From Staphylococcus phage RQ1, in the sequence record PV344601.1: a DNA stretch of 64,000 bases; one strand, given 5' to 3'. The notes below the pieces were generated by a model. The model was given only the letters and a program-made list of their open reading frames with translations. It was not told the origin of the DNA and did not search any database. The stretch's first letter is position 1, and every line of letters starts with the position of its first letter. Below, piece after piece: positions 33,738 through 34,444 of this stretch. Both the position numbers and the translations under genes were made by a program.

Positions 33738-34001
33738 CTATAATTCTACGTTTGGAACCTCTGACTCTGCTTCTGGAACATCTGACGGGTCACTAGGGTC
33801 TAGTGTAGTCGTCGTTGTAGTTGTTGTTCCCTCTGTTGTAGTCGTGGTCGTGGTCGGCTGAGTTGTAGTTGTTGTAGTTGTCGGCTCAGTCGTCGTAGTC
33901 GTAGTAGTTGGAGCAACTGTCGTTGTTGTAGTCGTTGTAGGAGCTACAGTTGTCGTAGTTGTCGTTGTACTACTTGTAGTCGTTGTAGTGGTTGGCTTAG
34001 G
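33738..34001 (-). CDS. +1-frame C-terminal extension of the major tail protein (poly-Thr repeats TTTTTTT(VAP/EP/QP))
   Basis: Frame open through the CCC_UAA stop context of exon 3. Ends PNVEL*. Confidence 0.5.
   Translation of the reverse strand, partial: PKPTTTTTTSSTTTTTTTVAPTTTTTTTVAPTTTTTTTEPTTTTTTTQPTTTTTTTEGTTTTTTTTLDPSDPSDVPEAESEVPNVEL
33800..34000 (-). repeat. ACN-codon tandem repeats encoding the poly-Thr blocks of the major tail protein extension
   Basis: Direct inspection. Confidence 0.8.
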
Positions 34002-34444
34002 GAGTAGTTGTTGTAGTTGTAGTTGAACCGTCCCCAGCAATATTTTCAAACAACGCTTCTAAAGCTGCACGTTTATCTTCACCACGAGCTGTTGCATAAG
34101 TGTTACCATTAGCATCTGCTACGAATTGACCTTCTAATTCATCTGCTTCTGGTTCTGATAATTCGTCTTCATTTGTTGCTAAGTTTTGTTCGTCTAAACG
34201 GAACTTACCTTTTAATAATGCGAAGAAGATAGGTTGACCATCTAATGCTTCTGATTCCATTAAAACACCAGCGTATGGAGGAGTTGTACTTTCCCCAACT
34301 AACATGATGCCATCTTCGTTTTCTTTACGTCCTAATAATTCAGCTGCTAAAGCTTCTGTCATATCAAGAATAGATAATGTAAGTTCTACTGAACCTGTAC
34401 CTTTTTGAGCTACATAATACGCTACGTTTGATGCGTACACTTTT
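33997..34444 (-). CDS. major tail protein, exon 3 (...VYASNVAYYVAQKGTGSVELTLS...TTTTTTTP*)
   Basis: Open frame downstream of group I intron 2. Confidence 0.7.

Follow-up and report, generated by a model that had tools for sequence, protein, structure and literature searches.

A probable +1 programmed frameshift in the tail-tube gene of Staphylococcus phage RQ1 and the poly-threonine extension it would encode beside a glycosyltransferase-like gene

A 64,000-nucleotide (nt) stretch of the genome of Staphylococcus phage RQ1 (PV344601.1), hereafter termed the window, carries a tail-tube (major tail protein) gene whose open reading frame (ORF) closes with a proline codon CCC set directly against a UAA stop. 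Analysis of this gene and of its relatives indicates that a conserved +1-frame extension, rich in threonine (Thr), is very probably expressed and reached by ribosomal slippage at CCC_UAA. Considering also the gene just downstream, which codes for a predicted glycosyltransferase, we regard it as likely that some of the tail-tube subunits gain a long Thr tail, probably O-glycosylated. A programmed +1 shift at the CCC_UAA of the major tail gene had been proposed in the initial annotation of the window, and the proposal gained support from the invariant site, the bias in codon position, the lack of a start with a Shine-Dalgarno (SD) sequence and the precedents described below.

Shift site and +1-frame extension of the tail-tube gene

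All genes of the tail-tube region lie on the minus strand of the window; the coordinates of the features are collected in Table 1. The 0-frame 3′ end of the ORF 33997–34440(−) reads ...GAC GGT TCA ACT ACA ACT ACA ACA ACT ACT CCC TAA, and in the shift context ACT CCC TAA G (34005–33996(−)) a shift-prone CCC is found directly 5′ of the 0-frame stop. The initial annotation had described an exon 3 ending with ACU ACU CCC UAA; this ending was found again on the minus strand, and the exon number also holds, the alignment with the uninterrupted gene of phage SA2 giving three exons. When read in the +1 frame (CCU AAG CCA ACC ACU...) the sequence stays open for 86 sense codons instead of the approximately 88 first reported, with the coordinates and the peptide as originally given. 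The encoded extension, KPTTTTTTSSTTTTTTTVAPTTTTTTTVAPTTTTTTTEPTTTTTTTQPTTTTTTTEGTTTTTTTTLDPSDPSDVPEAESEVPNVEL, starts with KP, continues with seven blocks of six to eight Thr separated by SS/VAP/VAP/EP/QP/EG linkers and ends with the acidic tail TLDPSDPSDVPEAESEVPNVEL. It is a low-complexity sequence (65% Thr) without any K or R after the KP, and no Pfam and no PHROG match was obtained for it. The Thr run passes unbroken from the 0 frame into the +1 frame, and the extension is interrupted by 3 and 4 stops in its two remaining frames.

Since a pure ACN repeat is free of stops in every frame, an open frame by itself is weak evidence, and the weight of the case therefore rests on conservation and on codon-position bias. 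A ranking of the +1 frames open after every stop of the window was of no use for significance, the longest ones simply overlapping downstream genes; for this reason the rarity of CCC was considered together with conservation and codon-position bias. In 60 crudely called genes of the window, CCC accounts for 18 of the 385 proline codons (4.7%), and the tail-tube gene is the only one that ends with CCC_stop.

The only matches of the region are Staphylococcus siphoviruses with genomes of about 90 kb, in the genus Sextaecvirus (6ec/SEP9/SA2 group), to which the window is assigned; the closest relatives are SA2 and PT1-4 (~80% DNA identity). The string AACTACT CCC TA(A/G) is invariant in seven sequenced phages (the window phage, SA2, PT1-4, PG-2021_4, TPWB06, SscS-F1 and DH5) that fall into three sub-lineages with differing downstream sequences. 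In SA2 and PT1-4 the junction is CCC TAA GCC and the +1 product starts with KPTTTT...; in the Mammaliicoccus-type phages PG-2021_4 and TPWB06 (~73% DNA identity) it is CCC TAA TGT, with a +1 product NVTTTTTTVKPTTTTTTT...VEDVPTPPEG; in SscS-F1 and DH5 it is CCC TAG AAA and the +1 product is a stub of 20 amino acids (aa). The junction was also present in six metagenomic contigs: in L099, L100, L101 and L102 as CCC TAA GCC, followed by extensions of 138, 114, 138 and 79 aa, respectively; in L016 as CCC TAG at the end of an unrelated-looking 197-aa protein terminating in TTTTTTTLP, with the +1 product SVTTTTTTVAPTTTTTTT...; and in L018 as CCC TAA of the stub type. Except for the 20-aa stubs, the length of the extension varies among relatives from 54 to 138 aa, with the +1 frame always kept. 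The Thr codons just upstream of the site vary as well (ACT, ACA, ACG), with ACT CCC TA remaining constant.

The frameshift was annotated in none of the Sextaecvirus records inspected. The GenBank records of SA2, PT1-4 and TPWB06 list the extension as an overlapping “hypothetical protein” of its own, and in some metagenomic contigs gene callers put a spurious opposite-strand ORF over it. The reverse complement of the ACN repeat reads as poly-valine, giving such spurious ORFs at 33658–33861(+) in the window and at 1986–2453(−) in L099 and L101. As for TPWB06 (L005, PQ358086, “Arcanobacterium phage TPWB06”), its sequence is here near-identical to those of the Mammaliicoccus sciuri phages PG-2021_4/67/68 and clearly belongs to Sextaecvirus, so that the stated Arcanobacterium host looks doubtful.

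Nucleotide differences within the extension fall mostly on the third position of the +1-frame codons: at positions 1/2/3 they number 8/11/38 between the window and SA2, 3/6/34 between the window and PT1-4, and 6/9/24 between SA2 and PT1-4, compared with 3/3/15 in the tail-tube body, although the bias is partly inflated by the alignment of the Thr runs at protein level, which counts against its full weight. The same third-position pattern was seen in the non-repeat end of the extension (TLDPS[DE]PSDVP). Synonymous codon changes exceed non-synonymous ones two- to three-fold and, in the 20-codon stub, SscS-F1 and DH5 differ at three sites (0/0/3), all synonymous. The +1 ORF is thus under coding constraint and conserved in the relatives, and it has no initiation signal of its own.

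Readings that dispense with slippage were weighed against these data. An insertion or deletion arising from sequencing or assembly of the ACN repeat, with a true gene in a single frame and an artefactual stop, had been the alternative offered in the initial annotation, and low-complexity ACN repeats are indeed error-prone; it is excluded, with a negligible residual chance, because CCC TAA and the change of frame recur in no fewer than 13 genomes or contigs, sequenced independently by different laboratories on different platforms, and the slip site is invariant and outside the variable part of the repeat. The +1 ORF might otherwise be an independent small gene, with its own start inside the tail-tube gene, yielding a free Thr-rich peptide of about 100 aa. 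It is so called in GenBank for SA2 (ORF86, with a TTG start), PT1-4 and TPWB06, and SscS-F1, DH5 and L018 do encode a Thr-rich protein as a separate ORF with a strong ribosome-binding site (RBS). In the window phage and six relatives, on the contrary, no +1-frame start with a usable SD was found: the TTG, GTG and ATG codons (TTG or GTG for the candidate starts, among them a TTG that would give MKILLGTVQLQ...) match AGGAGG at no more than 4 of 6 positions and vary between sub-lineages, which makes internal initiation unlikely in a Gram-positive host. Moreover, the +1 frame is open for just 19–32 codons upstream of the slip site, CCC_TAR and not any start signal is the invariant element, and the Thr run is seamless across the two frames; an independent gene is accordingly improbable. 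Slightly less probable still is a decaying remnant, in which an ancestral in-frame poly-Thr tail was severed by a frameshift mutation and its downstream part fell silent. Such an ancestor is plausible, as the close relatives PT1-1, PMBT8 and PT94 have an in-frame poly-Thr tail. Stops and out-of-frame indels would however be expected in a remnant, whereas the +1 frame is intact across lineages about 27% divergent in DNA, changes with a synonymous bias, has grown to 138 aa in some lineages and is preceded by a rare CCC kept beside the stop while the neighbouring Thr codons vary. Two further routes for joining the frames were rejected: splicing, as the intron-less SA2 gene has the same junction and no Rfam intron was found there, and transcriptional slippage, for which CCC is too short.

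With slippage at CCC_UAA, most ribosomes translating the spliced tail-tube mRNA would stop at UAA after ...STTTTTTTP, releasing a short subunit of about 198 aa with the predicted C-terminal peptide AALEALFENIAGDGSTTTTTTTP. In a fraction of ribosomes, the peptidyl-tRNA-Pro held in the P site on the rare CCC, beside a slowly decoded stop, would re-pair in +1 on CCU; decoding would resume at AAG CCA ACC... and add 86 residues, with the predicted junction peptide AALEALFENIAGDGSTTTTTTTPK, in which the K derives from the AAG of the +1 frame. The signal would consist of the rare CCC in the P site and the stop in the A site alone, as in SPP1 gp17.1*. No stimulatory RNA structure was predicted 3′ of the site (131-nt fold, z = −1.4 versus shuffles, with the first ~37 nt unpaired), and no SD-like element of the prfB type was found about 3 nt 5′ of the shift codon, where ACA ACT ACT precedes it; the G-rich element closest to the site, GCTGGGGAC, is some 30 nt away on the 5′ side and lacks conservation in the Mammaliicoccus-type phages. 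No tRNA genes, hence no phage tRNA-Pro, are present in the window. The long form, with its seven Thr blocks and acidic end, would project outside the tail tube as a disordered, mucin-like tract, and the efficiency of the frameshift would fix the ratio of plain to heavily decorated subunits.

The adjacent glycosyltransferase-like gene and its pairing with poly-Thr tags

The gene following the extension codes for a 297-aa protein that is very likely a glycosyltransferase, as judged from its modelled structure. It had escaped the initial annotation of the shift, and offers a likely role for the poly-Thr. An AlphaFold2 model built from 35 homologues (pLDDT 95, pTM 0.92) was compared with PDB folds, and the top 50 matches were all glycosyltransferases of GT-A fold, mostly retaining GT8-like enzymes, including WbbM (4e-9), LgtC (1e-6), the catalytic domain of UGGT, glycogenin, XXYLT1, Skp1 AgtA, GlyE and PBCV-1 A64R. 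Against the viral structures of BFVD, members of the same family were retrieved first and GT8 enzymes next. The residues D96-S97-D98, which follow the strand 91–95, and H242 do not vary among 35 sequences with identities as low as 43% and, in the model, fit a DxD...H metal site; D96, D98 and H242 presumably correspond to D103, D105 and H244 of LgtC. At the level of sequence, no match was obtained in Pfam (E ≤ 0.01) or NCBIfam (E ≤ 1), nor, with the family profile, in PDB (E ≤ 10); the protein falls in phrog_4417 (“unknown function”), a family distinct from Glyco_transf_8/GT8. In the SA2 paper, the extension ORF and the enzyme ORF are both listed as unknown.

Within Sextaecvirus, tblastn detected the enzyme in 10 Staphylococcus-labelled records plus TPWB06, which are exactly the records with a poly-Thr tail tube. 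The poly-Thr is reached by frameshift in SA2, PT1-4, PG-2021_4/67/68 and TPWB06, split off as a separate ORF in SscS-F1 and DH5, and in frame in PT1-1, PMBT8 and PT94 (...NIAG-T14-16-QSDSGFDDLGV). Phages 6ec, SEP9, CF1 and S-CoN_Ph1 have neither enzyme nor poly-Thr: their tube protein bears an acidic in-frame tail and the chaperone gene comes directly next.

Outside the genus, relatives of the enzyme were found in 442 IMG/VR contigs. The sequenced phages with such an enzyme number 76, their hosts being Lactobacillus, Enterococcus, Staphylococcus, Lactococcus, Listeria and Clostridium; among the matches listed, every annotated one bears an uninformative label. The neighbourhood was scored at 80 loci out of the 442 IMG/VR contigs. 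The ORF directly preceding the enzyme gene carries 8 or more Thr among its 30 C-terminal residues at 74 of them. A run of 5–7 Thr is present at five more, bringing the Thr-run-ended ORFs to 79/80, and the last locus (L018) is split, with a separate poly-Thr ORF. The carriers of this Thr tag are unrelated to one another, and comprise capsid proteins of the HK97 type (PF05065; L019, L024, L093) and of the gpE type (PF03864; L043), tail-tube proteins of PF04630 (L012, L013, L031) and PF06199 (Listeria L011), and small proteins made of a domain plus poly-Thr (L091, L094, iLp84). Capsid-borne tags followed by the enzyme gene occur in Enterococcus-, Listeria- and Lactobacillus-type phages (L019, L024, L043, L093, L096 = iLp84, and others from L016 to L095). 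In iLp84 two successive carriers precede the enzyme gene, namely a capsid protein ending with VPTTTTTTTSK and a 125-aa protein misannotated as “major tail protein”.

The in-frame Thr tails of major subunits are short, about 30 aa or less, while long arrays (54–138 aa) are delivered by frameshift or on separate small proteins. This distribution fits a control of stoichiometry, in which long decorated tails must be substoichiometric.

A split FN3-like module was observed in L006 (SscS-F1, ~2195–2651), L007 (DH5, ~2198–2660), L018 (~1335–1840) and L092 (~2600–3000). Here the 20-aa +1 stub that follows CCC_TAG/TAA resembles FN3 strands A/B (RNPQNVRVVAESETATIFAD; NKPSNIEVETDTNYVEVSAE; compare the start of the SPP1 extension, NAPQNLTYTATTDSVTVKW); after its stop and a gap of 25–45 nt, a strong RBS (AAAGGAGGA) precedes an ATG-started ORF coding for the rest of a small beta domain and a poly-Thr tail. 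The stub evolves under purifying selection (0/0/3 between SscS-F1 and DH5). L092 has the same split, with the preceding ORF ending GGC TAA. The module could arise from two chains by strand complementation, or by translational bypass (GAT-TAA ... GAC-GAT-TTA-ATG in SscS-F1).

Between the stop of the extension and the RBS of the enzyme gene, a hairpin was predicted by RNA folding, kept with compensatory changes in SA2, PT1-4, PG-2021_4, TPWB06, L099, L100 and L102. It is followed by UAUACAUA with no U-run and, for this reason, may be an attenuator or a stabiliser lowering the expression of the enzyme relative to the tube protein. In L100, whose enzyme is 95% identical, a gene for a 379-aa Glyco_hydro_20 protein (beta-hexosaminidase family) is present between the chaperone and tape-measure genes (4096–5235). 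The window has no such gene, and the insertion may hint at the sugar or be unrelated.

Because the tag is found now on head and now on tail proteins and always has this enzyme gene directly behind it, the mobile Thr tag and the enzyme are most simply read as a substrate-enzyme cassette. O-glycosylation of the Thr blocks by the enzyme would take place in the cytoplasm, as tails assemble or earlier, and the decorated tract could serve in adhesion, shielding or stabilisation. From the gene neighbourhood, we consider it reasonably probable that the Thr tract is the substrate of the adjacent enzyme. The chances are about even for the broader proposal of a widespread, undescribed glycosylation cassette of Firmicutes phages, made of a poly-Thr tag on capsid, tube or small proteins and of a GT8-like enzyme, here joined to a CCC_UAA frameshift that sets the number of long-brush subunits.

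The frameshift may on the other hand be real and the tract unglycosylated, a bare spacer or brush, with the GT-A protein modifying host wall polymers, another virion protein or DNA. The link between enzyme and tract, and with it the enzyme's acceptor, is proposed from the neighbourhood of the genes, a single glycosyltransferase gene is present, and the enzyme has no sequence-family assignment, all of which leaves room for this possibility. It is nonetheless unlikely, given that the enzyme gene directly follows a Thr-run-ended gene at 79 of the 80 loci and a separate poly-Thr ORF at the 80th, that the pairing holds across unrelated head and tail carriers, that enzyme and poly-Thr are present or absent together within Sextaecvirus, and that several of the nearest structural matches have proteins or their glycans as substrates (glycogenin, UGGT, GlyE, XXYLT1, Skp1 AgtA, A64R).

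Other points weigh against a frameshifted and glycosylated tail-tube subunit. The lack of a 3′ stimulatory structure means that the efficiency of the shift could be low; virion mass spectrometry in the SA2 paper identified just the capsid band, with the tail bands unresolved; and the Thr-rich product need not be fused to the tube, as the separate RBS-bearing poly-Thr ORF of SscS-F1, DH5 and L018 indicates. As for the enzyme, its assignment comes from a predicted fold with TM values of 0.5–0.57 to known enzymes and has no sequence-level counterpart in any Pfam, NCBIfam or PDB family.

Organisation of the tail-tube region

The exon 3 product was identified as a tail-tube protein by its match with Pfam PF04630 (Phage_TTP_1, E = 6e-10); searched with phmmer against PDB, the spliced protein gave no sequence match to a solved tail-tube protein. 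Intron 1, not recognised as RNA by Rfam, carries an ORF assigned to phrog_559 (HNH endonuclease, E = 2e-63). The tail-tube gene of SA2 is without either insert; those of PT1-4, PT1-1, PMBT8 and SscS-F1 carry inserts at varying positions.

Table 1. Features of the tail-tube region; coordinates refer to the 64,000-nt window.
Feature	Position	Strand	Basis or remarks
Tail-tube exon 1 (MASTIGFKR)	36010..36037	(−)	Alignment to SA2 gene; boundaries approximate
Inferred intron 1	34870..36009	(−)	Gap in alignment to SA2 gene; carries homing-endonuclease ORF 34944–35675
Tail-tube exon 2 (AKFFIYDKDDAVVNTHVVEGRANQGGTTEASISGLSAEAV)	34750..34869	(−)	blastn and tblastn vs SA2 gene; boundaries approximate
Intron 2, group I, ORF-less	34444..34749	(−)	Rfam RF00028 Intron_gpI at 34496–34760(−), 85 bits, E = 1.5e-21
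Tail-tube exon 3, ending ...FENIAGDGSTTTTTTTP*	33997..34443	(−)	PF04630; 94% aa identity to SA2 major tail protein residues 50–189
Shift site CCC_UAA	33997..34002	(−)	Last sense codon CCC 34002–34000 and 0-frame stop TAA 33999–33997
+1-frame extension ORF	33738..33998	(−)	86 sense codons 33998–33741, AAG (33998–33996) to TTA; stop TAG 33740–33738
Hairpin CUCCUCC-UUUU-GGGGGAG	33697..33714	(−)	Between extension stop and enzyme-gene RBS; RNA fold
297-aa GT-A (GT8-like) glycosyltransferase-fold protein	32775..33668	(−)	ATG at 33668, RBS AAAGGAGAG; predicted fold
Tail assembly chaperone pair	32164..32744	(−)	PF23857 Phage_TAC_19; ORFs 32394–32744 and 32164–32352

In synteny with SA2 and 6ec, the shift site stands at the 3′ end of the major tail gene and upstream of the PF23857 chaperone genes. 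At the end of the chaperone gene, about 1.6 kb downstream of the +1 site, a canonical lambda-type −1 slippery heptamer G_GGA_AAG was found (32403–32397(−)), from which the −1 frame continues directly into the 62-aa ORF of the pair; the homologous pair of 6ec is annotated as a joined coding sequence. This heptamer is context, separate from the +1 event. In the window, a +1 and a −1 programmed frameshift would thus lie 1.6 kb or less apart, an arrangement shared with SPP1. Further downstream, the tape-measure gene (25191–32060(−)) codes for 2289 aa with a long run of ~35-aa repeats (…W..IK..W..IK…) and with lytic transglycosylase and M23 peptidase regions; in L099–L101, L103 and 6ec this gene is apparently broken up by endonuclease-bearing inserts.

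Significance and comparison with known systems

In the literature, we found no report of this frameshift in Sextaecvirus, nor of tail or capsid proteins of Firmicutes phages that are glycosylated or bear poly-Thr, nor of the delivery of such a cassette by frameshift. Recoding at CCC_stop is itself known, and the window very probably adds a further, well-conserved case; what is new is the cargo, a mucin-like poly-Thr tract instead of an immunoglobulin-like (Ig-like) or FN3 domain. If the tract is O-glycosylated by the adjacent enzyme, virion glycosylation, established in mycobacteriophages, would reach many phages of staphylococci, enterococci, listeriae and lactic acid bacteria, some of which, such as Enterococcus phage VPE25, are in established laboratory use. 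Glycans on the virion surface could influence how stable the particles are, how antibodies recognise them and whether they adhere to mucus or cell-wall polymers, and the cassette could act as a short genetic tag for the site-specific glycosylation of phage particles. It would also allow the efficiency of a frameshift to be followed in a simple natural setting, through the stoichiometry of a modified structural subunit.

In the mycobacteriophages Che8, Corndog and Myrna, the glycans that phage-encoded glycosyltransferases attach to major virion subunits coat the particle surface (Freeman et al. 2023, as cited in PMC11256854 and PMC12363180). The hosts there are actinobacterial, and glycosylation is experimental there and inferred here. 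In Maravista (Che8-type), unlike in the window, the glycosyltransferase genes are placed towards the 3′ end of the genome, well apart from the structural genes. In the mycobacteriophage glycosylation texts consulted, no poly-Thr cassette and no delivery by frameshift are reported. A likeness is also seen with mucin-type O-glycosylation and with the glycosylation of bacterial serine-rich-repeat adhesins such as PsrP of S. pneumoniae, where a tandem, low-complexity Ser/Thr-rich tract is served by a dedicated retaining GT-A enzyme, GlyE being among the fold matches; unlike in those systems, there is here no sequence homology, the proposed modification would affect a virion protein in the cytoplasm, and a single enzyme gene is present.

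Ig-like, FN3 and carbohydrate-binding C-terminal extensions are added to capsid and tail proteins by frameshifting (Fraser et al. 2006, as summarised in PMC5009743). The poly-Thr extension is like this class in being a recoded, surface-exposed C-terminal add-on predicted on a subset of major subunits, and in being held by relatives in frame, out of frame or as a separate ORF. It differs in its cargo, which is probably a substrate for glycosylation in place of a folded domain: no Ig-like or FN3 domain was found in the extension of the window phage, FN3-like sequence being limited to the relatives SscS-F1, DH5, L018 and L092.

The putative recoding event shares every sequence-level feature of the CCC_stop class described in SPP1 and Listeria phages. 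In the tsh genes of the Listeria phages PSA, A118 and A500, a +1 shift occurs at CCC_UGA, in a host where CCC makes up 5% of proline codons (Zimmer 2003 and Dorscht 2009, as summarised in PMC5009743). A tRNA-Pro slipping in the P site, a rare CCC beside a stop, the 3′ end of the major tail gene and a low-GC Firmicute host are common to both; the Listeria stop is UGA instead of UAA, and the PSA extension, read from the genome (aca CCC TGA aac), is a short, acidic tail of 24 aa. The precedent of PSA, invoked in the initial annotation, therefore stands for tsh as regards tRNA-Pro, CCC and a stop, with UGA as the stop, and fails for the PSA capsid gene (cps), whose frameshift relies on a pseudoknot rather than on a stop.

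For CCC_UAA in a tail-tube gene, it is SPP1 and not PSA that provides the exact precedent. In SPP1, gp17.1 and gp17.1* are produced in a 3:1 ratio by a proven +1 frameshift at CCCUAA that adds 87 aa (Auzat et al. 2008, as summarised in PMC6316719). The sites read from the genomes are gct CCC TAA tgc in SPP1, with a +1 product NAPQNLTYTATTDSVTVKW... of FN3 type, and act CCC TAA gcc in the window, with the 86-aa poly-Thr tract. The event was proven by experiment in SPP1 and is predicted from sequence in the window, the SPP1 extension is a folded FN3 domain and the one described here a low-complexity tract, and no glycosyltransferase gene separates the tube gene of SPP1 from its chaperone genes. 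Apart from these differences, the two systems share the same CCC UAA hexamer, formed by the last codon and the stop of a siphovirus tail-tube gene, with CCC being rare, extensions of nearly the same length (86 and 87 aa), and a −1 frameshift in the tail-chaperone genes just downstream.

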